Source: an uncultured Gammaproteobacteria bacterium (GTDB taxonomy: Bacteria; Patescibacteriota; Patescibacteriia; UBA2591; UBA6264). Taken from it: a stretch of 43,359 nt of DNA. Below the pieces are notes generated by a model, which was not told the DNA's origin, searched no databases, and was given only the letters and a program-made list of their open reading frames with translations. Made by a program: the position numbers and the translations under genes. Where the stretch lies: the NCBI GenBank assembly GCA_964566895.1, contig CAZMJP010000002.1, positions 1 through 43,359 of the forward strand, written 5' to 3'. Shown in pieces: positions 34 to 24,538 of the stretch; the first letter of the stretch is position 1; each line of letters opens with the position of its first letter.

Positions 34-147
34 TTGATTTATTTTTTAAAACCTCATTTTTATAGCGCTTTTCCCGCCTTTGGTAGAACCCCGCCGTAGG
101 CAGGGGCAACTACTGGAATTATAGTAAAAAACCAAATAAAAGCAAAT

Positions 148-180
148 AAAAAAGGGGGTGAAAACACCCCCCCTTTTTAA
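148..180. terminator. Bidirectional intrinsic terminator hairpin
   Basis: Stem GGGGGTG / loop AAAA / CACCCCC at 154-171. It is flanked by an A-run upstream and a T-run downstream, so there is a U-tract on either strand. It lies downstream of ppsA on the minus strand. Confidence 0.6.
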
Positions 181-340
181 ATAAAGAATGGCAATCCGCA
201 GATAAAAATCTGCGGGGGTTTTCCCTGCTCAAACAGGATGCTAACAGGGAAAAACCCTTTTTTTGGTTTGAGAATAAGAATCCACTGTGTCATTTTAATT
301 CTCCTTTGTTCAATATCCGAATAAAAGAATACCAAAAATA

Positions 341-2818: not shown

Positions 2819-2972
2819 ATTAATTTTATAAAACCACTTAGTTTATCTAAAAACCGTTTTTCTAAATAAAACGCAGGAGGTTATTCTGTTTAGAATTTGG
2901 GAAACCATAATCTGAAGATTGTTTTGAATCTCGAGTTTCCAAACGAAATCGCATTTGATCTGACTAAAACAA

Positions 2973-3338
2973 TTAAAATTGAAATTTGACTTTATCAACA
3001 AATCTGGATAGGACCGGCGCTCGCCAATACCTTCCAGCTAAACTCTTAATCAAGCCAACCAACGACAAAATCAGACAAATTATCCAGCCCAAGAAACCCG
3101 CCACCCAACCAATAAAAGGAATAATCCAAACCAAAGTAAAAATAATTTCGCCGATGAACAACAATAACCCCTGTTTGGCGTGAAAACGCACATAATCACT
3201 TTTAACATGCAAAATAACCGGCAATAAAGACAGAACCCCCAAATAAGAAACTCCGGACAATAACCTGTCGATAATCCCCGCCCTTTTACCAGCCTCGACT
3301 ACCGAGGCAATTTTTTGAGTAATATCTTCGTTGTCCAT
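2973..3338 (-). CDS. Small integral membrane protein (DUF4870-like, tentative)
   Basis: 121 aa with two or three hydrophobic helices. The HAKQGLLLF motif precedes the helices, as in DUF4870-type proteins. ATG start. Confidence 0.5.
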   Translation of the reverse strand: MDNEDITQKIASVVEAGKRAGIIDRLLSGVSYLGVLSLLPVILHVKSDYVRFHAKQGLLLFIGEIIFTLVWIIPFIGWVAGFLGWIICLILSLVGLIKSLAGRYWRAPVLSRFVDKVKFQF

Positions 3339-3412
3339 ATTGATTCATTTTTTAACATTTTAATATCTTAGTCTTCATTATAGCAAAATCGCTTGATTTA
3401 ACAATATATCTT

Positions 3413-5074
3413 CTAAACAACAATAACCAACGGTCTTTTCCCGATTTTATTTAAAAGAAAATCGCTTAAGCTATTCTCTATTTTAGGTCTGGCGCTTTCT
3501 CTCAATCCAAACTTCTTGATTAATTTTTTGACCTTATTCTTTATTTTTAGAGCCGTTTGTTGATCAATCACCAGCCCCTTTGAAATAATCTGAATCTCCC
3601 GTTGGCTTTTTCTGGTTAATGATATAGAAATAAGACAAACTCCCGCCTCAGCCATTTTCTCCCGGATTTCAAGTATCCGTTTTTGCAAAACCGTGGCTCT
3701 TCCGCCCTCGACTGCCATAGACAGACCAACTACCTTTTTGGGCAGTATTCTTGCCTCAATTCGCCCCCTACCCAGTTTGCCGGACGAAGAATTAATCTCT
3801 AAAATCTGACCATTATGGAGCATAAAACAATTCTCTCTCTTTATCCCGACAGCCTTAGCTAATTCTATGTGCTGGACTCGCATATAAGGTTCGCCCTCAA
3901 TAGGAATAAAAAGCTTTGGTCTAACTAACCTTAGTATCTCTTTTAAATCTTCTTGAAAAGCATGGCCAGAGCTGTGAACACCCGCTCCCAAAACGGGTTG
4001 ATAAATTATTTTAGCCCCGCAGTCTACAATTCCATTCATCACCTTATGAATAGCCAACTCATTCCCCGGGATAGCCGAAGAAGAAAAGACTATCGTATCT
4101 GACTTTTTTATTTTTATCAGTCGATGCTCATTTTGGGCTATTCTAACCATAGACGACCCCTCCACCCCTTGGGATCCGCCGGCCAAGATGAGAAGTTTTC
4201 TATCAGGATATTTGCTATTATTTTCCAAATCAATAAAAAGTTTAGGGGGAACGGTCAAATAATCAAGGTCCTGAGCAATAGCAACGCTCTTTTTAATGGA
4301 AAGACCGGCAATGGCTATTTTACGATCGTATTTTTGACAAACCTGAATTACCTGTTGAATCCGGCTAATTAGAGTAGAAAAAGTGGTAAAAATGACTCTC
4401 GCTTTAGCCCGACGAATAATTGAATCAATTACCTTGCCAACCTCCTTCTCCGAAACAACCCGACCGGCTTTTTCAGCATTAGTGCTGTCTGAAAGACAAG
4501 CCAATACCCCTTGTTTACTAAAATCTATCAATCTTTGTTTTTTTATCGGTTTCTGGTCCGCCGGATTGCTGTCAAATTTGAAATCCCCTGTATGAATAAT
4601 TATACCTAAGGGTGTTTTAATGGCTAAACCAACGCTGTCAGGGATATTATGAACCACCTGAAAGGGATTAATTTTAAAAAGACCTAAATTAAAAGGCTGG
4701 TCAGGACTAATAACTTGCGTTTTTATTTTGAGCAATCCAACTTCTTTCAATCGGTCTTGAACTAAACCAATAGTTAATCTCGTGCCGTAAATTATTGGAT
4801 TGCCGAGTTTCTCAACCAAATAAGGAATAGCTCCGATATGATCAAGATGACCATGGGTTAAGACAATGCCGCGGAGACGATTCTTATTTTTTTCCAAATA
4901 ACTAACGTCAGGTAAAAGGTAATCTACGCCGGGAAAATCCGGCCCCGGGAAATCAAAGCCCAAATCAACCGCAATAATATCCCCTCCCTGCCCGCCGTCA
5001 GGCAGACACTCAAAAACAGTGCAATTTTTCCCCACCTCATCCATCCCGCCAAGCGGGATAATACGTAATTTCAT
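3413..5074 (-). CDS. rnj: Ribonuclease J
   Basis: 553 aa with the metallo-beta-lactamase motif LTHGHLDHIG. The beta-CASP layout and C-terminal domain are typical of RNase J, as is the N-terminus MKLRIIPLGG. Confidence 0.9.
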   Translation of the reverse strand: MKLRIIPLGGMDEVGKNCTVFECLPDGGQGGDIIAVDLGFDFPGPDFPGVDYLLPDVSYLEKNKNRLRGIVLTHGHLDHIGAIPYLVEKLGNPIIYGTRLTIGLVQDRLKEVGLLKIKTQVISPDQPFNLGLFKINPFQVVHNIPDSVGLAIKTPLGIIIHTGDFKFDSNPADQKPIKKQRLIDFSKQGVLACLSDSTNAEKAGRVVSEKEVGKVIDSIIRRAKARVIFTTFSTLISRIQQVIQVCQKYDRKIAIAGLSIKKSVAIAQDLDYLTVPPKLFIDLENNSKYPDRKLLILAGGSQGVEGSSMVRIAQNEHRLIKIKKSDTIVFSSSAIPGNELAIHKVMNGIVDCGAKIIYQPVLGAGVHSSGHAFQEDLKEILRLVRPKLFIPIEGEPYMRVQHIELAKAVGIKRENCFMLHNGQILEINSSSGKLGRGRIEARILPKKVVGLSMAVEGGRATVLQKRILEIREKMAEAGVCLISISLTRKSQREIQIISKGLVIDQQTALKIKNKVKKLIKKFGLRESARPKIENSLSDFLLNKIGKRPLVIVV

Positions 5075-11263: not shown

Positions 11264-11965
11264 TTATCCCCAAATAATAGTTCCTTTAAATTTTCTGTTT
11301 TTCAGACAATTCTCCAAATTTTTTATTTTTCTCCCGTTCAAAATAATCACTTTTAACTTAAGCCTCTGGGCCAATTTGCTTGCTGTTATATCAAAGGGGG
11401 CGGATTTCCCTGGCTGCCATTTAGCGCCGATAATTCTAAAAAAATCTTTCCAATTAATTTGTTTTAAGGGTTTGGCATCGAGATATTTAGCCGGGTCCTT
11501 ATCGCAGACAAAATTAATATCAGTTAAATTGACAATTGTCCCCACCCCTAAATTATTAGCCCAGAGGACCGCATCTTTATCGGATGAGCAACCCGGTTTC
11601 CACCCGGAAGCGATAATGAGTTTCTTATTGGTCTTAACTTTTGTTTTTGGGTTAAAAATAACTCGAGGATAAGCATATTTAGAAAAAATCACCCTCAATA
11701 ATTCGGCGTTCAATTTGGTCACCGCAATACCTAACCAATCCAAATCTACATTTTTGACCTTGGCGATTTTTTTTGCCCCTTTATTATACTGACGGCAGAC
11801 TCCCCCTCCGCCAGTGATAATAACAATCTTATAGCCCTGATTTAAAAGCTTTAGAATTAAAACTCTAAATCTTCTCAAAAAATTAACGGCCATTTTTGCT
11901 TGGGGAACAATTAAAGACCCACCCAGGGAAAGAATAAAAATTTTCCTCTTAGACAGTAATCTCAT
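11264..11965 (-). CDS. pyrH: UMP kinase, archaeal-type (amino-acid kinase fold)
   Basis: N-terminus KIFILSLGGSLIVP and glycine motif VIITGGGGVCRQY. The roughly 233-aa length and layout match archaeal-type PyrH rather than the bacterial KRILLKLSGE type. Start is taken at the ATG at 11965. Confidence 0.6.
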   Translation of the reverse strand: MRLLSKRKIFILSLGGSLIVPQAKMAVNFLRRFRVLILKLLNQGYKIVIITGGGGVCRQYNKGAKKIAKVKNVDLDWLGIAVTKLNAELLRVIFSKYAYPRVIFNPKTKVKTNKKLIIASGWKPGCSSDKDAVLWANNLGVGTIVNLTDINFVCDKDPAKYLDAKPLKQINWKDFFRIIGAKWQPGKSAPFDITASKLAQRLKLKVIILNGRKIKNLENCLKNRKFKGTIIWG

Positions 11966-11992
11966 AAAAAATAAAATGTTCTGAAGACACAA

Positions 11993-12025
11993 ATATCTCC
12001 GAATAAACCCGGGTGATTCGGATAT
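11993..12025 (-). terminator. Intrinsic terminator after the major pilin gene
   Basis: Minus strand reads ATATCCGAAT-CACCCGGGTTT-ATTCGGAGATAT followed by TTGTGTCTT. Confidence 0.5.
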
Positions 12026-12055
12026 TCAAGACAAACTTTTTATTTTTTTCTCGCC

Positions 12056-12562
12056 TTATCTAGCTACCCAAATTTCAGTTGTATTCTCAGACTCGCAAGC
12101 TCTAACTGTAATAATACCAGTGCTTGAACGTTGAAGGGTATAACCAGTCATACCCGCCGTCCAAGTACCAGCGCCATTCGGACTGATTGCCACATCGCCC
12201 AAATATCCCTCAGTAACCAACCCGGCCAAATTAACACAACTCGTATCGTCCTCAACAGCGGTATCACAACTTGCGTTCTGGTCGTCACAGCCCTCCGCCA
12301 CATCTCCGTTGGTAATCATATAGACATTCCCGGCGTCCATATTGGCAATTGCCGTCAAATAAGAACCGTTATTGTCAATCTGGTCTACTTTAATGGCGTT
12401 CAAGATTTCCGTTATATCAGCCCAGCGGTGTGAATCTCGGGCATCTTTAAATCTGGTTAAGGGGTCAAGAGCGACAAAAACCACCGCTGCCAAAATAGCA
12501 ATCACGGCAATAACGATTAAAAGCTCGATAAGGGTAAAACCTCTGTTTTTTGTTTTCAACAT
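12056..12562 (-). CDS. Type IV pilin, probable major subunit
   Basis: Prepilin leader and methylation motif KNRGFTLIELLIVIAVIAILAAV. The 168-aa protein has Cys pairs in its C-terminal half and is followed by its own terminator. Confidence 0.88.
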   Translation of the reverse strand: MLKTKNRGFTLIELLIVIAVIAILAAVVFVALDPLTRFKDARDSHRWADITEILNAIKVDQIDNNGSYLTAIANMDAGNVYMITNGDVAEGCDDQNASCDTAVEDDTSCVNLAGLVTEGYLGDVAISPNGAGTWTAGMTGYTLQRSSTGIITVRACESENTTEIWVAR

Positions 12563-12584
12563 AATAAATTATATATTTATTTTA

Positions 12585-14699
12585 TTATTGATTACCAGCG
12601 GTTTTTACAGCATAATCTGAAAAAACCCAACCCTGAGTCTCTTTATCTACCTCTATTTTATACCATCCGTCCTGTTCTTGCAAGAGTGGATAATTCTCTC
12701 CCGGATAAGCCCTGCCTATTTTAGAATAATTAGTCCCCGGTCCCGACCTGATATTTAACCAGCCAACCTCCGTGTCTTGAATCGTTACTAATTCTTTTTT
12801 CTCTGATTCTCCCGTTTCTTTTTCTAAAACCTGCTCTTCCACCTGTTCTACCTCCTCTTTTTGTCTTTTTTCTACTTCTCCTCCGGACTCCGCCTCCTCT
12901 TCTTCTTTAATTTCAATTAACTGATTGATAGAAACCGTTACTTTACCAAAAAGAAAATACATGTCTTTATCGTCGCTAGGTTCCAAATCGGTCTTAATAA
13001 TGTTATTTAAAGCATAATCAACGTTATTTTTATTTAATTTGTCCACTTCTCCCAAGAGTATCTTATTAGCGTCCCCCTCCGAATAAACAAGCCACTTAAT
13101 AATAAGGGGAAAGATAAGTTCTTTCGGTTCCGGACTTATCGGTTCTTCCCATAAAACTTCTCCCGGTTGCAGTTCTTTCCCGGCTAAAATTTTTGAATTT
13201 GCCCGGGCTTCATTATAATCACCGGCTCCCTTAATGGTGTTCTCAATTATCCGCCCCCTGACTCTGTCGCTGGTATATTCTTCCGCCTTAACAACCACCG
13301 GAACTCTCAAATCAAAAATTTGTATTTGGCTGTATTGGCTGACCATAGATTCTATCTCTCGTTTTTTTTGTTCCTTCTCGTGCCTTCGATAAGTGAGGGC
13401 TAAGCTAAAACCGACTATACCTAAAATGAGGATAATAATCAACAACGCCTTTTGCAAACGAATTTTCTTTTTTCTAAGACCATCCTCTTCTGGTCGATAC
13501 GTTTTTAAATTTTCCTTCTCCCCGCTCCCCTCCTCCGTCATCGGAGTTTCTACCTTTGCGATTTCCGACTCCTCGCTCCTTAAACTTCCCGATTTTTCCA
13601 CCAGTTTTATAACCGGATGATCCTTATCCCACTTCCTCTTGTTTAAATCGCGTAAAGCCAATCCAATAGCTTCAATGTATAAAAACGGCTTTACTTTTTT
13701 AAACGCGTCAACATCTAAAGATGACTCTCCAAGCCGGACCGGTAAATCAACTTTACCCCTAAAATACTCAAGCAAACCCCTTAACCGACTGGACCCACCA
13801 ACTAAAATAATTTCGCTGACCTTTTTATTCGCCTTGTTTTCAAAATATCTAAATAATCGGATTATTTCTTCTACCACCGGCTCTAATACCTTTGTCAAAA
13901 TGTTTCCCACTGCTTTTGTCCCGGAAGCGGTCGGAGGCAATAAACCATTCTCTATTTTTAGTTCTTCCGCTTGTTCCTGTTTAACCTTTAATTCCTCAGC
14001 AATTTTCTGAGTTAATAAATTACCGGCTAAATTAATTGAATAAGAATAACGCAAATCATTCCTATCAAAAATAGCCACAGTCGTGGTAACCGCGCCCATA
14101 TCAATAATACAGATCGGCTCTTTCGGAGGTTTAACAAATAATCCCCTAAACACAGCCAGGGTTTCAATATCAAAAAACTCTATCTCTATTTTCAAATCTT
14201 GAAAAAACTTTTGCCATTCTGAAACCGCTTCACGACTGACCGCTACGGCCAAAATTTCCACCTTAATTCTTCTTTGATCTAAAACTACGGCCTTTAATAT
14301 CTTATAATTAAATAGGATGTCTTCTTTTTTCAGTGGAATGCTCTCTTGCACTTCTTTTAAAATCAACTTGTCTCTAATACTAGTCAGAGTCTCAGCCACG
14401 CTTTTATCTTTGATAATTAAATCAAAAACATGCGTATAAACCTGGCTCTCGGGTAGTCCAAAGACGAGCCTCTTGGCTATAATTCGTTTAGGCTCGGCTT
14501 TTAAAAAAGTTTGTCTCACTGCTTCAGTTAGTTTTTCTTGGTTTTTAATTCTCCCTCTCTCAACAATACCAGGCTCTAACTTAATTCTGCCAACATTCAA
14601 AATCTTTGTTTTTCCGGCCTTACTTACTAATTCCACCGCCTCAATGGTGTGGTCGGCAATATCCAAACCAATAGATTTTTTTTGGAATAAATTCAACAT
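12585..14699 (-). CDS. pilM: Type IV pilus assembly protein PilM fused to a PilN-like membrane segment and a C-terminal SH3b domain
   Basis: N-terminal actin-like ATPase of PilM type (GLDIADHTIEAVEL..., IIDMGAVTTTVAIF, ILVGGSSRL). A transmembrane helix (ALLIIILILGIVGFSLALTY) and an extracytoplasmic domain follow. The protein ends in an acidic linker and an SH3b-like region (GWLNIRSGPGTNYSKIGRAYPGENYPLLQEQDGWYKIE). Confidence 0.8.
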   Translation of the reverse strand: MLNLFQKKSIGLDIADHTIEAVELVSKAGKTKILNVGRIKLEPGIVERGRIKNQEKLTEAVRQTFLKAEPKRIIAKRLVFGLPESQVYTHVFDLIIKDKSVAETLTSIRDKLILKEVQESIPLKKEDILFNYKILKAVVLDQRRIKVEILAVAVSREAVSEWQKFFQDLKIEIEFFDIETLAVFRGLFVKPPKEPICIIDMGAVTTTVAIFDRNDLRYSYSINLAGNLLTQKIAEELKVKQEQAEELKIENGLLPPTASGTKAVGNILTKVLEPVVEEIIRLFRYFENKANKKVSEIILVGGSSRLRGLLEYFRGKVDLPVRLGESSLDVDAFKKVKPFLYIEAIGLALRDLNKRKWDKDHPVIKLVEKSGSLRSEESEIAKVETPMTEEGSGEKENLKTYRPEEDGLRKKKIRLQKALLIIILILGIVGFSLALTYRRHEKEQKKREIESMVSQYSQIQIFDLRVPVVVKAEEYTSDRVRGRIIENTIKGAGDYNEARANSKILAGKELQPGEVLWEEPISPEPKELIFPLIIKWLVYSEGDANKILLGEVDKLNKNNVDYALNNIIKTDLEPSDDKDMYFLFGKVTVSINQLIEIKEEEEAESGGEVEKRQKEEVEQVEEQVLEKETGESEKKELVTIQDTEVGWLNIRSGPGTNYSKIGRAYPGENYPLLQEQDGWYKIEVDKETQGWVFSDYAVKTAGNQ

Positions 14700-14777
14700 A
14701 ATAAAACATTAGCGCTGAAATATCAGTTAAAAACTAACCCGCCTCTAGCGGAAAGAATAAGATGAAAATATCAAAAT

Positions 14778-16064
14778 TTATTTTTCTTCACCAGTCATTG
14801 GCAGGCTGACATAAAATGTCGACCCTTTATTTTCTTCTGATTCAAACCAAATCTTTCCATTTAAGACTTTCATAATCATCTTGGCAATATAAAGACCAAG
14901 TCCTGCTCCTTCAGTTTCTATTTTTTTAGCATTATCCGCTCGGAAAAATTTTTCAAAAATACTCGGCTTTGCTTTTTCCGGTATGCCAATACCGCTATCT
15001 CTAACGCTAATTAAATATTCTTCATTATTCTTTTGCTCCAATTTAACTAAAATATCGCACTCCCTTTCCGGCGAGTATCGAATGGCGTTAGTCAATAAAT
15101 TATGGAGGACCTGTCGGATTAAATCCGAGTCAATCAAAATTTTAGACAATTTAGTCTCAGGTCTTTGAAAAACTAAACAACATTTTCTAATCCCAGCCAA
15201 AGGACTGACTTCATTAATAACGTTCTGAATAAGATTTTCAAATTGAACCAATTGCAACCTAACCTCCAATTTGCCTGTTTCAAGGCGAGAAACATTAAGA
15301 AAATCGTCAACCAATTGAGTTACCCGTTTAGCCGAATAATAAATATTATCCAGATATTCTCCGTATTTATCACTTAAACTGCCTATTTTCTCATTGCGAA
15401 GCATTTCAGTAAATAAACGAATAGAAGTTATCGGGGTCCGAAGTTGATGAGAGGTAATAGAAATAAACTCATCTTTCATTTCCTCGGCTTTTTTTTGTTT
15501 GACTGACAAAACCCCGCTTAAAAACGCCACCCCAAAAAAAATGAGTATCCGATTCAAAAGAACGGAAAAAGCAATATAAACATTATCCTGCCATTCTAAG
15601 ACCTGGGCCCCAATCTTAGAAATATGGGGAATAAACTCATAGACCTCCAAAAGCGTTAAACCTAGATAAGCAACGCTGGAAAAAATAGCTATCCCCATAC
15701 CGGCATTTAGAGAAAATAATATAGCCAAAGTAGTAATCGGAATAAGATACAGAAAACTAAAAATACTGGAAAATCCTCCCGTATAATAAACAATCAAAGT
15801 GATTAAACAAACTTCGCCGACTGGCCATAACCAAACCGCCAGTTTAAGCAACTTGCCCCTTTTAACAAAACAGCTGAAAAATAAGTTCAGTCCAACCATA
15901 GCTATCAGAGAATAAAAGACTGTTTGCCAGGGGAAAACAATCCCAGTCGGAATATAAAACAATAAGACGATTAAAGAGGAAACTATGGTCAACCAGGATA
16001 CTTTAGCTCGTCGGCCTAAATTTATTATCAAATTATTTTGTTGGATTTTTTGTTTTTCTTGCAT
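14778..16064 (-). CDS. Membrane sensor histidine kinase (PilS-like topology)
   Basis: About six N-terminal transmembrane helices, an H-box (ITSHQLRTPITSI), an N-box (LLTNAIRYS) and G-boxes (DSGIGI, GAGLGLYI). Confidence 0.88.
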   Translation of the reverse strand: MQEKQKIQQNNLIINLGRRAKVSWLTIVSSLIVLLFYIPTGIVFPWQTVFYSLIAMVGLNLFFSCFVKRGKLLKLAVWLWPVGEVCLITLIVYYTGGFSSIFSFLYLIPITTLAILFSLNAGMGIAIFSSVAYLGLTLLEVYEFIPHISKIGAQVLEWQDNVYIAFSVLLNRILIFFGVAFLSGVLSVKQKKAEEMKDEFISITSHQLRTPITSIRLFTEMLRNEKIGSLSDKYGEYLDNIYYSAKRVTQLVDDFLNVSRLETGKLEVRLQLVQFENLIQNVINEVSPLAGIRKCCLVFQRPETKLSKILIDSDLIRQVLHNLLTNAIRYSPERECDILVKLEQKNNEEYLISVRDSGIGIPEKAKPSIFEKFFRADNAKKIETEGAGLGLYIAKMIMKVLNGKIWFESEENKGSTFYVSLPMTGEEK

Positions 16065-16172
16065 TTTTCGCTCAGTAATAATGCGCTTCCTAAATTAGAA
16101 ACACATCATCTTAATCGTTTAATTATCCCAATCCCGGCAAGTATCTCCCCGTTGCCGGGAGAAAGGTCACCC

Positions 16173-16607
16173 TTACTCCTCCTCCCAGTTATCTAAACTA
16201 ATAACATTATCCGTCAAGGTCAAGTCCGCTTGTATCCTCTTATAATACTCGTTGTTTACCGACCCAACAAGATTAATCCTTCTTTGGCCGCCTCCTAAAT
16301 CCGATACTTGTATTATACACGAACTGTTATCAAGTGTTAAGTTTATTTCTCCTTGCCCGACTCCATAATCAGTCTTAAGACGAATCTGACGCAAAACCTC
16401 TTCCAGGCATCCATCAGCTGTTGATAAAGTTTCCATTCCTTTTTGAGAAGTATAACCTAAATCTAACTCGCCCAACCCCAATATTGAGGCGCTATAAGCC
16501 ATAATCAAAACCGCCGCTCCGACAATAATAACAGTCATCAACGCCGCAACAGCGGACTGAGAATTTGTGATTTGTGATTTATGATTTGTAATTTCTTTAA
16601 TTCGCAT
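16173..16607 (-). CDS. PilX-like minor pilin / pilus assembly protein
   Basis: The hydrophobic N-terminal helix SAVAALMTVIIVGAAVLIMAYS is followed by a small globular domain. It sits within the minor-pilin gene set. Confidence 0.5.
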   Translation of the reverse strand: MRIKEITNHKSQITNSQSAVAALMTVIIVGAAVLIMAYSASILGLGELDLGYTSQKGMETLSTADGCLEEVLRQIRLKTDYGVGQGEINLTLDNSSCIIQVSDLGGGQRRINLVGSVNNEYYKRIQADLTLTDNVISLDNWEEE

Positions 16608-16637
16608 CCAAATTTTAAATCTTAATTTTAAATTACG

Positions 16638-17174
16638 TTACTGCCTCAAGCTCACCGCCGTTCGCAAATTATATGAATATCCGTACCCCGCCCCTCCGGA
16701 ATCGTCATTATACCTAACCGTCATCTCAATTCTGATATTCTCTCGGTTAGCCGCTAAAGGAGTAAGATTAGTAAAAACTAAATTAACAACCTTAACTTTA
16801 TTGTTGGTTATAACTACCGGGTCGTCTGTTCCTCGTCTAATCTGCAAAAAACCGTCATCAGAATCTAAATCAATAATCGTTGGATTTTCCTCGCTATTAG
16901 CCATAATCAGAGACAAAACCCCCGGGTCGCTGTCAAAAGTAGAGGATTCGATATTAACGCCGGTCGCGGCCCGTATCTCCCGACTTATCAAATCTAAGGC
17001 GGTCCGGGCATTCGCTTGAACCTCTTGAATAACATAAGCCTTGTTTCGCGTTTTGGAAATAGAGATGCTAAAACCGACAAAAGCAACCACCAGTATGGAA
17101 ATAATAGTAAGATAAACTAATGTTTCAATAAGCGTAAACCCAACTTTTGATTTACTTGATTGAATCTTAACCAT
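16638..17174 (-). CDS. Minor pilin with prepilin-type N-terminal cleavage/methylation domain (PilW-like position)
   Basis: KVGFTLIETLVYLTIISILVVAF motif. Start is taken at the ATG at 17174; the track start at 17180 is a TTG. Confidence 0.8.
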   Translation of the reverse strand: MVKIQSSKSKVGFTLIETLVYLTIISILVVAFVGFSISISKTRNKAYVIQEVQANARTALDLISREIRAATGVNIESSTFDSDPGVLSLIMANSEENPTIIDLDSDDGFLQIRRGTDDPVVITNNKVKVVNLVFTNLTPLAANRENIRIEMTVRYNDDSGGAGYGYSYNLRTAVSLRQ

Positions 17175-17193
17175 TGACAATTGAAAGATTAGA

Positions 17194-20100
17194 TTATTTA
17201 TAATTTATTCTGACTTCCTCCAATATCGGCGTGTCTAAACCGTCGCCAATCAACTCAACTCGATACTGAAGCCATTGATTGTCGTTCAAATCTGAAGAAA
17301 TTAGCGATCCGTCGGCGTTGGTAAAATAAGACCCCGGGCCATCTACTCCAAACCAGTTTGTCCAAGGACTGGGCGACCCCCCTGAGTCGGGAGCAACCCT
17401 TATTTGCAACTTGATTTGACAAGATAAAGAACAAGCAGGTATATTTTCACCCCAATCTATAATTTGGACAGGAGAAATGTCGCCCATATTAAAGGCTGAA
17501 GAAATCAGATAGCCGTTTTGAACAAATAACGCTTCTCTGGTGAAGTGAATTATCGTCCCGTTATTGCCGACCGTCCAACCGTCGATTTCAGAAATCATCC
17601 CTACTGAATTAAGATTTCTGTTTGTCGGAGATGAAAAATCAGCCCAACCCCCGTCAAGCCATCTGTATATTTCTCCGCTGCTGCCCATTGCCCAGCCATC
17701 GTCGGCCGTGATAAAATAAACGCTTCGCCAATTAGTACTCCCGGTATCAATGAATTGAGTCCAGTTAGTCCCATTATAACGATATATTCTCCCGCTGTCG
17801 CCGACTAACCAGCCGTCGCCGGCCTCTAACATAAAAACAGAATTCCAAACCTGACTTCCGGTATCAACAAATTGATTCCAATCAGTTCCGTTATAGTGAT
17901 ATATTTTACCATCATTACCGACTAACCAGCCGTCGCTATCTGAAACCATATCTAATCCTCTCCAGTTCATCTTCCCCGTATCAGCAAATTCTGTCCAATC
18001 AACCCCGTTATAATGATAAATTTTGCCGCTTTCCCCGGCGGCCCAGCCATTGTCAGAAGACAACATATAAATAACATTTATATCTCGCCGTCCCAAATCA
18101 ACAAATTCAGACCAAGCCGAGCCGTTATAATGAAAAAATTTCCCGCTTTCCCCGCCCGCCCAACCGTCATCGGCCGCCGTCATTTCAACGGCATATAAAT
18201 CTTGTTCGCCCAAATCAATAAATTCGCTCCAATCATTACCGTCGTAGTGCAAAATTTCGCCACTATTGCCTACGGCCCAAATATCGGACGAAGAGACAAC
18301 GTCAATTCCGTTTAAATTTTTATCAGTCGGCGTATTGTAAACAATAGTAACATCAGCCAGCTCCGGCGTCTCAAGACCAGAATCCCCTTTTGTTAAAGTC
18401 GCGCGATACTGCAAATACTGACGACTGGGAGAAGAAATATAGGACGATTCCGGGTCGGTCAGCTCGCCGCTGAATGACGACCAACTGCCATCCGGAATCG
18501 GCGTATTGCCTGTTCTGGTAGCGATAGTTAAGTCTGAACCTGCCGGCAAAACTTCCGTCCAGTAAATCATCTCCCAACGGGTATTTATCTCCTCGCTGTT
18601 GAAAATCCGCGAGAAGAACACGCCCGATTCAGGATAAAAATCGCCATATTGGTAAATTCTTCCGTCGTCACCCATTACCCAACCACTATCGACGGAAGAG
18701 AAACAAATTGCCCGCCAGTCCATCCCTCCGTTGTCGACAAATTCACTCCAAGACGTTCCGTTATAGTGATATATTTTCCCGCTTTCGCCGGCGGCCCAAC
18801 CATCATTGGAAGACAACATCTGAACAACGTTTATGTCATTGCTGCCGAGGTCGGCAAACTCAGACCACATCCAGCCGTTATAATGAAAAAATTTCCCGCT
18901 ATCGCCGACGATCCAACCGTCATTGGGGAAGACCATATCAATATCATTCAAATCCTGAGAGCTAATTTCGTCAAGTTCCACCCAAAACGTCCCATTATAT
19001 TGGGCGATATTTCCTTTATCGCCGACGGCCCAGCCGTCATTGGCCGTTATCATAGCCACGGCTCTCCATATTTCTCCTCCAGTATCGGCAAACTGACTCC
19101 AATTAACACCATTATATTTATATATTTTCCCGCTGTCTCCCACAGCCCAGCCATTGTCAGAATAAACCATATCAATACCAAATAAATCATTGCTAAAATT
19201 GTATAATTGGGTCCAATTAAATCCATTGTAACGGTATATTTTGGCGCTTTCGCCCACAGCCCAACCATCGTTGGCTGAAATCATCTCAAGACCGTTTATA
19301 TCGTCGCTGCCCAAATCAGTAAATTCAGTCCAATTGCTTCCATTATAATGGAGTATCTCTCCGCCGCCAGCCGAAGCCCAAATATCATCAGCACTTAAAT
19401 AAGTTATATCGGTTATTTCGTTTGTCGTGGCACTCTGGCTGTCGTTATGCTCTGTCCAAAGGGTATCCTGCTCTAAAAAAACACCGGCGTCTTCTCCTGT
19501 CCCAACGACAACGGTGTTATTAAACTCTTCCCCGGCATTAAAATCAACATCTGTAATGTCTCTAAACTGTTCTCCTCCGGCTAAAATCCAAGAACCATCT
19601 CTGGCTTTAGCTAATCGGATTTCTCCCATCACGCTATAGTCAATATTATTGTCATCAGAATTATATTTGGTTTGATCCGACCAGATGTCCTGTCCTGGAC
19701 CGCCCACCCAATTAGTTTGAATCCACTCTTGCGAGTCCCAATTAGTTAAATAAGTTATCTTCTGAACGGAATTAATTATTCCCGGCCTAACTTCCCAGGT
19801 GACTGTGACAGTCACTTTTTTGCTGTGTAGGTCAGAATAAAGCCCGGGGCAAGCGGTAATCTCGTCTAAAATGTTCCGGCAAACATTTTCAAAAGTAATT
19901 GTTCGGGTATATTGATCTATTTTTTCCGCGGTTCCTTCGCCGGAGAAAATCCACTTTCCCTCATTTATCTCCACTCCGCTCTGATTATAAATAAATTCAT
20001 TCCAACCTCTGCCCCGAATCGACCGAACGGCCTCAACACCTTCCTGAGCCAACGCCTCGGCCTGAGTTTGTTCCCCTCCCTGCCCCAAAGCGTTAAAACC

Positions 20101-20220
20101 TCCTAAAGCCAGAGAAATCATTACAGCGCTAATCAAAGAAAAAATAGCCATAGCAATGACGAGTTCAAGGGTACTCTGGCTATGGCGAGAAAGACTTTTG
20201 AATGAATAAGATATACTCAT
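17194..20220 (-). CDS. Giant pilin-headed protein with two beta-propeller repeat blocks and two beta-sandwich modules; candidate pilus tip adhesin
   Basis: The N-terminus has a pilin-like helix with Glu (QSTLELVIAMAIFSLISAVM). There are 13-14 repeats of about 39 aa with consensus W.EF.D.G....n.v.m.s..DGWAvGdsGkIyhYNG. Two related modules end in QYLQYRATL...TPELADVTIVY and QWLQYRVEL...TPILEEVRINY. Confidence 0.85.
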   Translation of the reverse strand: MSISYSFKSLSRHSQSTLELVIAMAIFSLISAVMISLALGGFNALGQGGEQTQAEALAQEGVEAVRSIRGRGWNEFIYNQSGVEINEGKWIFSGEGTAEKIDQYTRTITFENVCRNILDEITACPGLYSDLHSKKVTVTVTWEVRPGIINSVQKITYLTNWDSQEWIQTNWVGGPGQDIWSDQTKYNSDDNNIDYSVMGEIRLAKARDGSWILAGGEQFRDITDVDFNAGEEFNNTVVVGTGEDAGVFLEQDTLWTEHNDSQSATTNEITDITYLSADDIWASAGGGEILHYNGSNWTEFTDLGSDDINGLEMISANDGWAVGESAKIYRYNGFNWTQLYNFSNDLFGIDMVYSDNGWAVGDSGKIYKYNGVNWSQFADTGGEIWRAVAMITANDGWAVGDKGNIAQYNGTFWVELDEISSQDLNDIDMVFPNDGWIVGDSGKFFHYNGWMWSEFADLGSNDINVVQMLSSNDGWAAGESGKIYHYNGTSWSEFVDNGGMDWRAICFSSVDSGWVMGDDGRIYQYGDFYPESGVFFSRIFNSEEINTRWEMIYWTEVLPAGSDLTIATRTGNTPIPDGSWSSFSGELTDPESSYISSPSRQYLQYRATLTKGDSGLETPELADVTIVYNTPTDKNLNGIDVVSSSDIWAVGNSGEILHYDGNDWSEFIDLGEQDLYAVEMTAADDGWAGGESGKFFHYNGSAWSEFVDLGRRDINVIYMLSSDNGWAAGESGKIYHYNGVDWTEFADTGKMNWRGLDMVSDSDGWLVGNDGKIYHYNGTDWNQFVDTGSQVWNSVFMLEAGDGWLVGDSGRIYRYNGTNWTQFIDTGSTNWRSVYFITADDGWAMGSSGEIYRWLDGGWADFSSPTNRNLNSVGMISEIDGWTVGNNGTIIHFTREALFVQNGYLISSAFNMGDISPVQIIDWGENIPACSLSCQIKLQIRVAPDSGGSPSPWTNWFGVDGPGSYFTNADGSLISSDLNDNQWLQYRVELIGDGLDTPILEEVRINYK
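17542..18315 (-). repeat. Intragenic tandem repeat block 2 (about 7 units of about 117 nt, propeller blades)
   Basis: Covers aa ~636-893. Units end in HYDG, HYNG, HYNG, HYNG, RYNG, RWLDG and IHF, and belong to the same repeat family as block 1. Confidence 0.8.
18646..19419 (-). repeat. Intragenic tandem repeat block 1 (about 7 units of about 117 nt, propeller blades)
   Basis: Covers aa ~268-525 of the 1008-aa protein. Seven successive units end in HYNG, RYNG, KYNG, QYNG, HYNG, HYNG and QYG. Confidence 0.8.
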
Positions 20221-20246
20221 TTTTCAATTCATTTTAATGTTGTCTC

Positions 20247-20729
20247 TCAATGACTTTCCTTTATTATCCCCAGGCTATTTATACTAATTGTTCTGTTACC
20301 GCTCGTTTCATGAGTTAAGATAATCGCGCCGGCATTGGGCAGACCCGCTCCCAAAGGCAGTCCAAACCCTTTGGAAAAATTAACATCATTATCAACTAAT
20401 GTCGTTGATATATGGAGAGAATCGTCTAAAGTTGTCTCTCTGTCATAGTTGCTCTCTCTCTCAGTATAAGAGGGTCCTTGATATAAAATGTATTTGTCAT
20501 TACCGGAGTTTATTTCAAAATAAACGCCGTGAGTCGCATCGTTTAGTCCGGCAACGCTGCGTCCTCGAGCTGTTCTTAAAATTTGAATAATTTGCGCCGA
20601 ACTCTCATTAAGCTGGCTCTCAACCTGTAAATTGCCGTAAATCGGTATCGCGGCCGTCGTTAGAATAACGATAATGGCGATAACAATAAGAAGTTCAATT
20701 AAAGTGAAAGATTGTCTTATTTTTGACAT
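20247..20729 (-). CDS. Minor pilin (GspH/FimT-like position), prepilin-type N-terminal domain
   Basis: RQSFTLIELLIVIAIIVILTTAA motif. Start is taken at the ATG at 20729. The gene ends at a TGA stop. Confidence 0.82.
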   Translation of the reverse strand: MSKIRQSFTLIELLIVIAIIVILTTAAIPIYGNLQVESQLNESSAQIIQILRTARGRSVAGLNDATHGVYFEINSGNDKYILYQGPSYTERESNYDRETTLDDSLHISTTLVDNDVNFSKGFGLPLGAGLPNAGAIILTHETSGNRTISINSLGIIKESH

Positions 20730-20749
20730 AAACAAAAGGTGGAGCGATA

Positions 20750-21844
20750 TTATCCTCCGATGTTCCCGGTAATATTGTAAATGGGAGTGATAATTGATAA
20801 AGCCAAGAAACCGACCACTAAACCGATAAAAATCAACAAAACCGGTTCAATGGCCGTTGATAAAGTCTTGGTCGAAGTATCAACCTCAGACTCATAAAAA
20901 TCGGCTAAATAAAACAGGACCTCCTCTAAACGTCCCGATCCTTCTCCAACCTTAATCATCTTAACCACTAAAGCGGGAAATATATCTTTGAAATAAATCA
21001 AATTATCCGAAAGTTTAATCCCTTTGCTAATCCGCTGGCCGGACTGAGACAGGGCCTTCCCATAGTAATAATTACTCATTGTTTGGGCGGTAATATTTAC
21101 TGCCTCGTCAAGATTGAGTCCGCTTTTTATTAAAGTGCCTAAAGTTCTGGAAAAACGAGCCAAATTGGTATGAATAACGAGTTTCTTAATAATCGGGAGT
21201 TTTAAAAAAAGCCAGTGAGTGACCGGTCGAACCCACCTTTGTCTGACCAGCCAAACCGTCAGAATAATCACGGCAATAAGCAAGATAAACAAAATTAATC
21301 CATGATCTTCGATAAAATGAGAAAACCAAATTAAAACCCGGGTTGTCACCGGCAAATCCGCTTTTAGTCCCTCAAATAAAGGGGTGATCTTGGGTAAAAT
21401 AACGAAAGAAAGAATTATCGCCAAAACAAAAGCCGCCACTAAAACGACAATTGGATAAAGCATCGCTCCTTTTATCTTTGAAATCAGCTCTCTTTCTTTT
21501 TCTAATTGTTTGGCGATATTCTCCAAATTTTCCTCTAATGTCCCGGAAGATTCCCCGGCTAAAGTAGCATTAATAAACAAACCGGAAAAAAATCTCTGAT
21601 AATCGCCCAACGAAGAAGAGAGCGAACGCCCGGCCCTGACTGATTTTAAAACACTTCTCAATACTCCTTTAAGTTTTCCTGTGGCCGAAGTCTCGACAAG
21701 ATTCAAGGCCTCGGTAATAGTCAAACCGGATTTTAACATCACGGCTAAATGCCTAGCCAAAAGCGCTTTTTGGGTTAGGGTTACGCCGCCAATGGCAATT
21801 TCTTTCTCCAAAACCCCCTTTTTTTGTTCGATTTGTTCAGACAT
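20750..21844 (-). CDS. pilC: Type IV pilus platform protein PilC (GspF family)
   Basis: 364 aa with two repeated GspF-type cytoplasmic domains and three transmembrane helices. The C-terminus (EPVLLIFIGLVVGFLALSIITPIY) is typical of the family. Confidence 0.9.
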   Translation of the reverse strand: MSEQIEQKKGVLEKEIAIGGVTLTQKALLARHLAVMLKSGLTITEALNLVETSATGKLKGVLRSVLKSVRAGRSLSSSLGDYQRFFSGLFINATLAGESSGTLEENLENIAKQLEKERELISKIKGAMLYPIVVLVAAFVLAIILSFVILPKITPLFEGLKADLPVTTRVLIWFSHFIEDHGLILFILLIAVIILTVWLVRQRWVRPVTHWLFLKLPIIKKLVIHTNLARFSRTLGTLIKSGLNLDEAVNITAQTMSNYYYGKALSQSGQRISKGIKLSDNLIYFKDIFPALVVKMIKVGEGSGRLEEVLFYLADFYESEVDTSTKTLSTAIEPVLLIFIGLVVGFLALSIITPIYNITGNIGG

Positions 21845-21849
21845 ATTTA

Positions 21850-23541
21850 CTATTCTCTAGTTACTCTTAGCACCTCTTCCAAGGTGGTGATTCCATTAAA
21901 AACTTTTTCTATCCCATCCTCTAACATCGTTGTCATCCCATTCTTAATCGCCACTTTCATCAACTGTTCGCTTGAAGAACGTCCAATGATCAAACTCCTA
22001 ATATCTTCACTCATTTCTAAAACCTCAAAAACCCCAATCCGACCGACATAGCCCGTGCGAGCGCAAACTTTGCAACCAAAACCCCGATAAAGAATAATTT
22101 TATTTAAATCCGTCTGCCCATTAGCTTTTAAAATCTCTATTAAACGCGGCTCTTTTTGAATAACTGCTTTTTCCTCATTAGTTAGTTTACAAGAGTACCG
22201 ACACTTCGGACAAATTTTTCTGACTAACCTCTGAGCAATGGCGACATTAACGGTCGAAGCGACCAAAAACGGCTGAACCCCCATATCTAATAATCTCGGC
22301 AAGGTTGTCGCCGCATCGTTGGTATGAAGAGTCGATAAAACTAAATGTCCGGTCAAAGCCGAATTGACGGCGATACCGGCTGTTTCTTTGTCTCTGATTT
22401 CTCCGACCATAATAATATCCGGGTCCTGACGAACAATGGCTCTCAACCCTTTGGCAAAAGTCAGATTGGTTCTGGGATTAACTTGAATCTGGCTTACTCC
22501 CTCTATATCATACTCAACCGGGTCTTCAATGGTTGAGATATGAACGTCGCGAGTATTTAAAATCTTTAAAACAGCGTAAAGGGTGGTCGTCTTCCCGCTG
22601 CCGGTCGGACCAGTAACTAAAATCATTCCATGAGGACGCCCAACAGCCCCTTTAATCTTTTCTAAATCAGAAGATAATAAACCTAAATCTGTCAAACTAA
22701 ACTGCCGGCTTTTAACTGACAAAAGCCGCATTACCACATTCTCCCCTTCAACCACCGGGATTATTGAAACCCTGACGTCAACCAGTCCGTCTTTAACGTT
22801 AAAACGAAATTTGCCGTCCTGAGCTGCCCGATGCTCATCGGTTCTCATTCTGGATAAAATTTTAATTCTGGTGATAACAGAATCCAATAAATCTTTTGGC
22901 AAAGATAAAACATCGTGCATGACGCCATCTATTCTAAAACGGACCACAATCTTGTTGATATACGGCTCAACATGAATATCCGACGCCTTATTTTGATAAC
23001 CGTACATCAAAATGGTATCAACCATTTTTACCATAATTTCGTCTCTTTGGGTTCCGCTTAGAGTTCTATTTTTGAATTGCTTTAAAATTTTATCAAATTC
23101 CTGCCTTAAAGAGGGTTGATAACTGAAAAGAGCCTCGCGTAAATCTAATTTGGTGATGAAATAAGGGAAAATTTTCTCCCCGGTCCGTTTCTCTATAAAA
23201 TGCTGTATCTCCAAATCGTCCGGATTCCTCATTCCGACTTTTATCCCCTCTTTAGACCTGGCAAAGGCAATTACGCCTTTGGATTCAGAGACTAACTCGG
23301 GAATTAAATTAAGCGTTTCCTCGTCTATCTTCTCTTGTTTAAGATTAACATAACGCCAACCCGCGTCTTCGGCAATTAATCTCCCCAATTGGTCATCTTT
23401 AATGACATCCCCTTCTATTAAAACGTCAGCCAAATTTTTCCCTTGCTTCTCGGCTTTTTTAACATTTGACTCAAAATCGTCCTCGCTGATATGACCGGGC
23501 TGAACCAAAAGTTCTTTTAGTTTTTTAACTGCTATTTGCAT
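21850..23541 (-). CDS. pilB: Type IV pilus assembly ATPase PilB (GspE family)
   Basis: Walker A (GPTGSGKTTTL), Asp box, Walker B (IIMVGEIRD) and His box (TGHLVLSTLHTND). The tetracysteine motif (CPKC...CKVC) and an N-terminal GspE-N domain are also present. Confidence 0.93.
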   Translation of the reverse strand: MQIAVKKLKELLVQPGHISEDDFESNVKKAEKQGKNLADVLIEGDVIKDDQLGRLIAEDAGWRYVNLKQEKIDEETLNLIPELVSESKGVIAFARSKEGIKVGMRNPDDLEIQHFIEKRTGEKIFPYFITKLDLREALFSYQPSLRQEFDKILKQFKNRTLSGTQRDEIMVKMVDTILMYGYQNKASDIHVEPYINKIVVRFRIDGVMHDVLSLPKDLLDSVITRIKILSRMRTDEHRAAQDGKFRFNVKDGLVDVRVSIIPVVEGENVVMRLLSVKSRQFSLTDLGLLSSDLEKIKGAVGRPHGMILVTGPTGSGKTTTLYAVLKILNTRDVHISTIEDPVEYDIEGVSQIQVNPRTNLTFAKGLRAIVRQDPDIIMVGEIRDKETAGIAVNSALTGHLVLSTLHTNDAATTLPRLLDMGVQPFLVASTVNVAIAQRLVRKICPKCRYSCKLTNEEKAVIQKEPRLIEILKANGQTDLNKIILYRGFGCKVCARTGYVGRIGVFEVLEMSEDIRSLIIGRSSSEQLMKVAIKNGMTTMLEDGIEKVFNGITTLEEVLRVTRE

Positions 23542-23568
23542 GGTCGCTAAATCGTTTAAACCCTCTCT

Positions 23569-23973
23569 CTACTCTTTTTTGGTCAGTTTAGCTATCTCTT
23601 TGCATCCTAAAAGCAAAAAAAGGTTTCCTAAAAGCCATAAACTTGGACCAATAACCGCCACCCAAATATCTTCCCTTAAATCAAAAACGCTGAAAGAAAA
23701 CCACAAAAAGCCAACTGTATAAATCATCATCACCACACAGGTGGCTATTCTTGAGAACGCTCTTTCCAAAACGCCGCCAGCCATAATCTTTGCGGCGCGA
23801 TAAAGATAATAAAAAGCAATTAAAGCGATAATAGCCGCCGCTATACTTATCGCCAACCCGACGACGTCAGCCGTGCTTATTGGTATTCCTAAAACATTAT
23901 AAAATTTCATAAACGCCTTGTTTAGTAAAAGTAGTCTACAAATCCATGCGGACGCCACGAATAATAGTCTCAT
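23569..23973 (-). CDS. Integral membrane protein, unknown function
   Basis: 134 aa with four hydrophobic helices. It lies between the receiver gene and pilB in the same orientation. Confidence 0.45.
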   Translation of the reverse strand: MRLLFVASAWICRLLLLNKAFMKFYNVLGIPISTADVVGLAISIAAAIIALIAFYYLYRAAKIMAGGVLERAFSRIATCVVMMIYTVGFLWFSFSVFDLREDIWVAVIGPSLWLLGNLFLLLGCKEIAKLTKKE

Positions 23974-24017
23974 CAGTAATTCGTCGCATCCGCATATTTA
24001 TCTGTAGATTCGGATTA

Positions 24018-24395
24018 TTATTTATTTAAAATATCTTTTATTTTTTCAATCACGTCTCTCATTGTGGCGTTGGATTTGACGATATAATCCACCGCCCCAA
24101 GCTCTTCGCTTTTTTTAATATCTGACTCTTGGCTTAAATTAGAAAGAACCATAATGGGCAGGTTTGATATCTTGTTTTGTTTTATTTCTTCCATAACTTC
24201 AAAACCGCTTTTAAGAGGCATAATCAAGTCGAGCAGGAGTAAGTCGGGTTTTTCCGATTTTATTTTTTCAACAGCTTCCCCCCCATTGCTGGCGACAATC
24301 ACCTCAAAACCAGCCTGACTTAATCCATCTTTATAAGCCCGACAAATAAACTGGTCGTCCTCAGCAAGTAAAATTTTCGGTTTCTCGTTAGACAT
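24018..24395 (-). CDS. Stand-alone response regulator receiver protein (CheY-like)
   Basis: 125 aa with the acidic pocket DD (LLAEDDQ), phospho-acceptor D (LLLLDLIMP) and conserved S/T and K (VLSNL, KS). There is no output domain. Confidence 0.88.
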   Translation of the reverse strand: MSNEKPKILLAEDDQFICRAYKDGLSQAGFEVIVASNGGEAVEKIKSEKPDLLLLDLIMPLKSGFEVMEEIKQNKISNLPIMVLSNLSQESDIKKSEELGAVDYIVKSNATMRDVIEKIKDILNK

Positions 24396-24538
24396 ATAAT
24401 AATATTATTGAATCTCCGCCCCCTCGCGAATTTAAACAATTAGATAATCAAAACTCATTTGTCTTATAAACACCCGTCTATCTTTAACCTCCAATCTTTG
24501 TATTATAACACATTTATTAGCATTAAAAAAGTAAATCG

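Follow-up and report, generated by a model that had tools for sequence, protein, structure and literature searches.

A probable assembly cassette for a regulated, adhesive type IVa-like pilus with a predicted double-propeller tip pilin in a genome of the Patescibacteria

Patescibacteria depend on cell contact, and pili are the best candidates for the finding and holding of their hosts. The closest described system is that of Nanosynbacter lyticus TM7x (Saccharibacteria), an organism without outer membrane which has two separate type IVa-like pilus systems, T4P-1 and T4P-2. One of them includes PilT and PilD, the second has no retraction ATPase of its own, and binding of host glycans was proposed for the minor pilin PilX2, which carries a C-terminal seven-bladed propeller; the second, non-essential pilus contributes to host binding and not to competence (PMC11623550). 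Here, a related type of locus was analysed in a window of 43,359 nucleotides (nt), i.e. the whole stretch of DNA under study (contig CAZMJP010000002.1 of assembly GCA_964566895.1), which is contig 2 of a 668-kb genome made of 36 contigs and estimated to be 96% complete. The locus is most likely a cassette for the assembly of a regulated, adhesive pilus, one of the two pili of type IVa-like kind in a Patescibacteria cell without outer membrane. This is in line with the original prediction, made from the letters of the window alone, of a type IV pilus locus from a bacterium lacking an outer membrane. The closest homologues with named carriers were found in Patescibacteria, namely in AH-259-L05, followed by Uhr-, Magasanik-, Buchanan- and Falkowbacteria.

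The comparison with TM7x rests on gene content and description, not on orthology. Both organisms share the absence of an outer membrane, the two separate systems, the presence of PilT and PilD in only one of them and a minor pilin with a seven-bladed propeller in its C-terminal part. In the second locus of TM7x, PilM2, PilN2 and PilO2 are separate proteins and the pilins are encoded in another locus, whereas here everything is found in a single operon, with PilM in fusion with a membrane part and SH3b. Moreover, no kinase or receiver was described for TM7x, whereas a two-component pair is built into the present cassette, and one RCC1-type propeller in TM7x stands against two Ycf48-like propellers here.

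The cassette consists of 11 open reading frames (ORFs), which are arranged head to tail on the minus strand from 24395 down to 12056. The one-strand order and the coordinates of the original prediction were recovered for all 11 ORFs, and the domain content (Pfam, NCBIfam) agreed with its labels for 10 of them. As it had also stated, the locus has no secretin, PilD, PilT or separate PilO, to which the absence of a separate PilN can be added. Intergenic gaps are mostly of 5–44 nt, while larger ones of 108 and 78 nt flank the kinase gene. The features are given below in the direction of the genes, with protein lengths in amino acids (aa) and expectation values (E) of the matches.

24502..24510, minus strand: candidate extended -10 promoter-like motif, TGTTATAAT, read from the sequence in the gap of 143 nt that separates the receiver gene from argS
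24018..24395, minus strand: receiver-only CheY-like regulator, 125 aa (Pfam Response_reg, E 8e-24; no output domain)
23569..23973, minus strand: orphan small membrane protein, 134-aa ORF (no family match)
21850..23541, minus strand: PilB-type assembly ATPase, 563 aa (T2SSE, E 1e-127, and MshEN)
20750..21844, minus strand: PilC platform protein, 364 aa (T2SSF twice, E 1.5e-53; also matched by the NCBIfam models of PilC and GspF)
20247..20735, minus strand: minor pilin 1, GspH/FimU-like, 162 aa (N_methyl, E 3.6e-6)
17194..20220, minus strand: modular tip pilin with PilV-like head, 1008 aa (AlphaFold2 model, mean predicted local distance difference test (pLDDT) 88.2)
16638..17180, minus strand: minor pilin 3, PilW/GspJ-like by position, 180 aa (N_methyl match)
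16173..16607, minus strand: minor pilin 4, PilX/GspK-like, 144 aa (alignment of 11 orthologues)
16065..16172, minus strand: structured 108-nt spacer between the PilX-like gene and the kinase gene (two strong hairpins)
14778..16064, minus strand: histidine kinase, 428 aa (6TM_PilS, HisKA and HATPase_c)
12585..14699, minus strand: PilM fusion, 704 aa (PilM_2, E 2e-30; SH3_3, E 9e-13)
12056..12562, minus strand: putative major pilin, 168 aa (TIGR02532, E 3.5e-9)

The assembly ATPase PilB displays an N-terminal MshEN domain, a Walker A motif (GPTGSGKT) and a tetracysteine motif. The PilB model TIGR02538 aligned over residues 7–562 with 517 bits, which is under the strict cut-off of NCBI (676). The best relatives with a solved structure, aligned over the full length, were PilF of Thermus and PilB of Myxococcus and Geobacter (406–375 bits), while GspE reached 359 bits, aligned from residue 157 only, and BfpD 127 bits. 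The ComGA model gave 253 bits (cut-off 300) and covered residues 176–441 only, and PilM is present in the locus. At the level of the pilins, the N-termini matched type IVa pilins with E values of 1e-12 to 1e-5, against 0.6–0.95 for GspG. Judged from model scores, matches to solved structures and gene content, the cassette is assigned to the type IVa-like pili and not to the type II secretion systems (T2SS) or to ComG.

A giant protein with a pilin head had been predicted in the second position of the minor pilin block, a description supported by the AlphaFold2 model (37 sequences, pLDDT 88) of the 1008-aa protein. The model starts with a 56-residue pilin helix (residues 16–71) and a beta-sheet head (80–168), followed by a small beta domain, a 7-blade propeller (269–528), a beta-sandwich (532–628), a second 7-blade propeller (636–894) and a second beta-sandwich (902–1007). 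The protein itself gave no match in Pfam or NCBIfam, PilY1/PilC family included; its homologues carry PSII_BNR and N_methyl matches and are annotated as PilV in some sources. Among bacterial folds, the closest to the model are double propellers that bind glycans, namely the Bacteroides sensors BT4663, BT4673 and BT3049, and PorZ. The pilin heads are 55–66% identical across homologues that differ in their C-terminal parts. Since the heads are conserved and the C-terminal parts swapped, the protein is regarded as a modular pilin with exchangeable payload. A similar layout is known from PilB (vWA module) and PilC (lectin module) of Streptococcus sanguinis, which combine a pilin module with a following binding module in an organism that also has no outer membrane (PMC8179133). 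In comparison, the add-on is here far larger, at about 800 aa, with two propellers and two sandwiches, and the gene in this position ranges from 158 to 1740 aa in complete related loci. An ORF of 178 aa was also noticed in antisense within the 1008-aa gene (18649–19185, plus strand); most likely, this is no gene but results from the repetitive DNA that encodes the propellers.

The four minor pilins show a clear likeness to FimU-PilV-PilW-PilX-PilY1 of Pseudomonas aeruginosa and to GspH-I-J-K: they follow the same order, only the last one is without the glutamate at position 5 (E5), and a large propeller-containing adhesin comes with the tip complex. The analogy with fimU-pilVWX drawn in the original prediction was thus well chosen, including the pilin head of the adhesin-like protein. 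As a difference to P. aeruginosa, the propeller protein is itself a pilin and there is no separate PilY1, and the subtypes are assigned here by position and weak matches. Indeed, subtyping of the pilins by profiles against solved structures recovered the common N-terminal pilin helix only. The gene of the 162-aa pilin opens the tip block in every related locus, and weak GspH matches were obtained in seven of 14 members of its family (best E 0.006). The 180-aa pilin has N-terminal matches to ComGF, HpsC and Verru_Chthon cassette C and a conserved position; gene position and these N-terminal matches are the sole basis of the label PilW-like. The 144-aa protein matched no Pfam or NCBIfam family of its own. 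It has a single hydrophobic segment (residues 19–37), forming an N-terminal helix with neither a G/F cleavage motif nor E5, and two Cys which are invariant in 11 orthologues. The label PilX-like relies on gene position, on the missing E5 and on weak PilX_N matches in three of the 11 members of the family, a sequence pattern consistent with the GspK/PilX position.

The leaders of the pilins (slash, putative cleavage site) read RQS/FTLIE in the 162-aa protein, KVG/FTLIE in the 180-aa protein and MLKTKNRG/FTLIE in the 168-aa protein. In the 1008-aa protein the leader is HS/QSTLELVIAMAIF (S/QSTLEL), to be compared with the consensus [KR]G/QSLLEVIVAMAIFSLI ([KR]G/QSLLEV) of its family, in which about 66 members have a detectable leader. 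Gly occupies position -1 in about 60 of these 66, while Ser is found in the window and Ala in the two nearest relatives. Since Ser or Ala at this position recurs among the GspH-like and PilW-like classes of the relatives, small residues other than Gly seem to be tolerated. The pattern of a short class III leader, in which a small residue precedes the cleavage site and Glu stands at +5, can be read in the 168-, 180-, 162- and 1008-aa pilins. A lack of processable leaders, which the original prediction had named as a possible refutation, was not observed: the leaders look processable, two of them with Ser at -1. The 168-aa pilin has four Cys, and its gene closes the cassette in 37 of the 40 related loci that are complete; its content in Gly, Ala, Ser and Thr is of 34.5%, against 22.7% for PilB. 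We infer that it is the major pilin. In the closest relative, AH-259-L05 (locus L008, 8980–9996), the GspH-like first minor pilin is a protein of 338 aa with a CBM96/disaggregatase-repeat carbohydrate-binding module, which indicates that a second tip subunit can also be modular. An additional pilin of 343 aa is encoded there after the giant pilin.

The PilM fusion was modelled with AlphaFold2 from 12 sequences (pLDDT 75). The model comprises PilM (residues 1–352), a disordered linker, a membrane helix (about 418–436), a well-predicted alpha/beta outer domain (458–591), a Glu-rich linker and an SH3b domain (637–700). The top Foldseek matches were PilM of P. aeruginosa, Thermus and Myxococcus (E 1e-24), all of them to the PilM part. 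The label PilM-N fusion given beforehand was consequently retained for its first half, which is backed by PilM_2 and Foldseek, and not for the PilN half, which found no sequence support. Across the cassette family, PilM is either plain (about 340–360 aa) or extended (410–707 aa), and the C-terminal part of the present fusion is common to about a dozen proteins only. In the relative L120, an ancestral split between the PilM and SH3 genes was considered and rejected, as it comes down to one in-frame TAA inside a continuous frame.

The search of the genome for pilD, pilT and comEC, as suggested in the original prediction, located PilD, two PilT-like ATPases and ComEC. A single PilD, with A24_N_bact and Peptidase_A24 domains, is encoded on contig 15. 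After it come the genes of four further minor pilins (173, 186, 244 and 257 aa), whose order matches that of the four in the window. The one of 186 aa is similar to the pilin head of the 1008-aa protein (34% identity, E 3e-7). On contig 17, pilM, two genes for bitopic proteins, pilB, a PilT-like gene and pilC were found; a third PilB is encoded on contig 12, PilT on contig 4 and ComEC on contig 6. This organism has therefore two pilus systems, the second with pilM-N-O-like genes, pilB, pilT, pilC, pilD and the four further minor pilins, and the cassette is one of the two. Two statements of the original prediction had to be corrected in this respect. The locus is not complete, because it depends on a prepilin peptidase whose gene is on contig 15, and it is one of two pili rather than the main surface-interaction machine, as a whole second pilus system is present. 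Of the two PilT-like genes, only that of contig 4 has kept the lysine of Walker A (GPTGCGKS); it is an orphan gene and the sole canonical PilT in the genome. Its orthologues flank the cassette in six relatives (L019, L025, L074, L087, L091 and L097). The PilT-like ATPase of contig 17 (about 11725–12807; T2SSE, E 2.5e-16) shows GPRDSGRS in place of the Walker A motif GxxGxGK[ST], with Lys replaced by Arg, and could be a degenerate paralogue without hydrolysing activity.

The conservation of the cassette was followed in 80 named Patescibacteria loci and in 151 genomes drawn evenly from the class. Related loci were found via PilB; the 1008-aa family has no stretch conserved enough for an alignment-based search. 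PilB of the 80 loci is 50–64% identical to that of the window, against 39–40% for the paralogues within the genome. In about 20 of the 151 class genomes, PilM matched that of the window (E up to about 1e-35) clearly better than the second PilM of the genome itself did (E 6e-28). The locus comparison proposed in the original prediction showed that the order pilB-pilC-H-V-W-X-pilM-pilin is kept in the 80 loci and in about 20 loci of the class sample, and the cassette type is widespread in Patescibacteria. A receiver gene accompanies pilB in 54 of the 80 loci, directly upstream in 47, with stop and start codons that often overlap; a kinase gene is found no more than 3 kb away in 45, and a kinase and/or receiver gene is inserted between pilB and pilC in nine. 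PilD was found in none of the 80 loci, and PilT of the contig-4 type in four of them and in two of the class sample. None of the 80 has a kinase between the tip block and pilM. This position, between the PilX-like gene and pilM, is restricted to the small clade of the window, i.e. AH-259-L05, with the same flanking genes, and two metagenome contigs, and it is kept in all four clade members for which the context is available. Local to this clade are thus the relocated kinase with PilS-type sensor and the PilM-SH3b fusion, while the payload of two propellers is that of the window itself. The embedded regulatory genes pointed out in the original prediction are indeed present; as an oddity of this locus they did not hold, since the receiver stands by pilB in the majority just given and only the position of the kinase and its PilS-like sensor are local.

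The receiver displays all the expected residues, namely the acidic pocket D13/D14, the phospho-acceptor D56, S84 and K106, and is 57–64% identical to receivers encoded directly upstream of pilB in the relatives. The sensor of the kinase matched 6TM_PilS (PF25323) with an E value of 2.2e-8 and 34.5 bits (cut-off 27), includes six hydrophobic segments within residues 25–182 and is joined directly to HisKA and HATPase_c. PF25323 was detected in all seven close homologues of the kinase, and two distant matches are named PilS by the Joint Genome Institute. The core of the kinase is 56% identical to that of a relative's Cache-HAMP-PAS kinase preceding receiver-pilB, and 42% to the other kinase of the genome. 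Owing to these identities with the pilB-adjacent pair of the relatives, kinase and receiver, although 8 kb apart, are regarded as orthologues of that pair, and the kinase of the clade appears to have had its sensor replaced by a six-helix PilS-type domain. Kinases at other cassettes have a Cache-HAMP-PAS, a HAMP-PAS or no sensor. In the class sample, PilS-type kinases occur in eight of the 151 genomes, one of them inside a pilus operon (pilB-kinase-regulator-pilC-pilM). The genome of the window has two receiver domains and two histidine kinases in total. Both receivers (125 and 135 aa) are without output domain, and no DNA-binding response regulator, NtrC-type sigma-54 PilR included, was found in the genome. 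The second pair, located on contig 3 (10980–13938), consists of an 837-aa Cache-HAMP-PAS-type kinase and the 135-aa receiver-only regulator, and adjoins parA/parB and a gene for a 2212-aa surface protein. In a Candidatus Uhrbacteria locus (L010, 11977–17535), a cassette of the same type has no adjacent receiver, and genes for MCP, CheW and two receivers follow a few kb downstream, which suggests a Che-like input in that lineage.

Two kinds of known regulation are relevant for this pair. In P. aeruginosa, PilS binds and senses PilA through its six membrane helices (PMC6058289). The likeness to PilS-PilR concerns the six-helix PilS-type sensor, detected above cut-off, and the fact that the kinase is encoded with the pilus genes; the partner is here the 125-aa receiver and not a sigma-54 activator. 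As this partner has no output domain, the output is probably a protein-protein contact and not pilA transcription. Regulators without output domain or CheY-like regulators are known to act on the extension motor: the single-domain regulator EmvR of Xanthomonas binds PilB and lowers its ATPase activity (PMC11973254), DrdR of Xanthomonas binds PilB and PilT (PMC13507683), and phosphorylated PixG of Synechocystis binds PilB1 (PMC11181946). A similar contact may, by analogy, take place here. The genes of EmvR, DrdR and PixG are orphans or belong to Che-like systems of proteobacteria and cyanobacteria, whereas the receiver gene is here located beside pilB in a conserved cassette. No description of such a kinase-receiver-pilus wiring in Patescibacteria was found in the literature.

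Taken together, the most likely function of the cassette is the production of a regulated, adhesive, possibly retractile pilus with a glycan-binding double-propeller tip. Based on the domains, PilB as motor, PilC as platform and the membrane-anchored PilM fusion would form the base, which the SH3b end of the fusion probably ties to the cell wall. The four minor pilins would prime the filament and remain at its tip, where the 1008-aa pilin would expose its two propellers as binding module, probably for a glycan on the surface of a host or partner, and the 168-aa pilin would build the shaft. Leader cleavage would depend on the single PilD of contig 15, and retraction, if any, on the contig-4 PilT with its intact Walker A motif. 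Regulation is the least certain step. The six-helix PilS-like kinase would phosphorylate the receiver encoded by pilB, and the latter, which has no output domain and for this reason most likely acts by binding, would contact the motor (PilB, or PilC/PilM) rather than alter transcription. The membrane pilin pool as input of the kinase is a guess by analogy with PilS. More generally, a transcription-free loop, for feedback or for the sensing of contact, is put forward tentatively, in which the PilS-type kinase reads the pilin pool or the engagement of the tip and switches the extension motor via the pilB-adjacent receiver; other Patescibacteria would use the same receiver-PilB pair with other sensors, such as Cache-PAS kinases, bare kinases or Che-like arrays. 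The cassette represents a compact and widely conserved parts list, with motor, platform, a four-pilin tip with exchangeable module and a receiver beside the motor. It offers ideas on pilus control in cells with almost no regulatory genes, and its local variant points to pilin-pool sensing and to anchoring of the pilus base in the cell wall in the absence of an outer membrane.

A T2SS-like pseudopilus would be a short protein-exporting piston instead of a long surface fibre. The PilM-helix-outer-domain build is that of GspL, the GspE and GspF models score about level with those of PilB and PilC, the minor pilins form an H-I-J-K set and no PilT is present in the locus. This reading is nevertheless highly improbable: the whole genome gave no match to the secretin (PF00263) at E 0.1 and the cell lacks an outer membrane that would have to be crossed, GspE aligns with a part of the ATPase only, while the type IVa PilB proteins align in full and with a higher score, the pilin N-termini are nearer to type IVa pilins than to GspG, and the 1008-aa tip protein is ill-suited to a periplasmic piston. 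ATPase similarity and gene content likewise speak against a competence pseudopilus, which the original prediction had named with type II secretion as what would overturn it. A different proposal is that of a pilus serving mainly for DNA uptake and feeding ComEC rather than for adhesion. Patescibacteria are naturally transformable, type IV pili often serve DNA uptake and ComEC is encoded in the genome. This proposal is rather unlikely, although less so than the former, as the cassette is not ComG-like (PilB with its full N-terminal region, partial ComGA match, PilM present) and has at its tip a large, fast-diversifying propeller module typical of adhesins. The second pilus system could do the job, and in TM7x it is the non-essential second pilus that aids host binding without a role in competence (PMC11623550). 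A role in DNA uptake had been mentioned in the original prediction, and nothing ties the cassette in particular to it.

A third alternative is that kinase and receiver are mere genomic neighbours of the pilus genes and control something else, such as expression via an unknown partner or the other pilus. A receiver without output domain may act on many targets, the spacers on either side of the kinase gene are of a size not seen elsewhere in the cassette, and no receiver accompanies 21 of the 75 cassettes whose upstream sequence is long enough. On balance this is unlikely, given that the receiver-pilB adjacency persists despite wide divergence, that kinase-receiver pairs even occur between pilB and pilC in nine loci, that the place of the kinase is held throughout the clade and that the genome is devoid of DNA-binding response regulators. 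Some points weigh against the pilus as proposed, or against parts of it. The template-modelling scores (TM-scores) of the propellers are low (0.23–0.33), so that only the double-propeller build is shared with the glycan-binding proteins, with no ligand shown in common. The 162- and 1008-aa proteins carry Ser at -1, which makes the cleavage of both uncertain. The outer domain of the PilM fusion gave no PilN, PilO or GspL match by profile against solved structures and Pfam; PilM-N fusion is for this reason to be understood as a description of architecture, not as demonstrated homology. The link between PilT and the cassette is one of neighbourhood in six of about 100 loci. According to a report on cyanobacteria, their CheY-like regulators of a single domain do not bind the motor of the pilus (PMC11181946), so a receiver-motor contact is not a given. 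Finally, the contig-3 kinase is a paralogue which could cross-talk with the receiver of the cassette.

The cassette is surrounded by housekeeping genes: argS, gap, DJ-1, tsf and rpsB stand on its upstream side, while the downstream side has a UMP-kinase-like gene, rplJ and rplL. The consensus scan of the locus for promoters and terminators was uninformative, and the extended -10 motif remains a candidate only, since the promoter scan was overall barely above shuffled sequences. A terminator had been predicted after the pilin gene; that segment folds no better than shuffled sequence (z = 0.07). The spacer at 16065–16172 folds with a minimum free energy of -35.5 kcal/mol (z -4.25), which none of 200 shuffled sequences equalled. 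The spacer is missing in the nearest relative, where the gap between the PilX-like and the kinase genes is 1 nt. It could uncouple the expression of the kinase from that of the minor pilins.

The orphan membrane gene between the receiver gene and pilB is unique to the window and was missing from this position in all relatives examined. A comparison with 1.8 billion representative proteins gave only seven homologues, all distant; their alignments begin at residue 22, and M22, at 23910, is probably the real start of the protein. The best homologue adjoins a VKOR gene and has no pilus genes nearby. The orphan gene was rejected as a pilus component, since none of the related cassettes has it and the best homologue stands outside any pilus context. 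On contigs 15 (12504–16471) and 29 (64–4122), the same string of genes was found, i.e. pth, der, a 375-aa gene, a 160-aa pilin and a membrane protein of 470–490 aa, with 77% identity between the two 160-aa pilins. As pth and der are normally single-copy genes, contig 29 probably belongs to a second, related strain that was binned into the genome.

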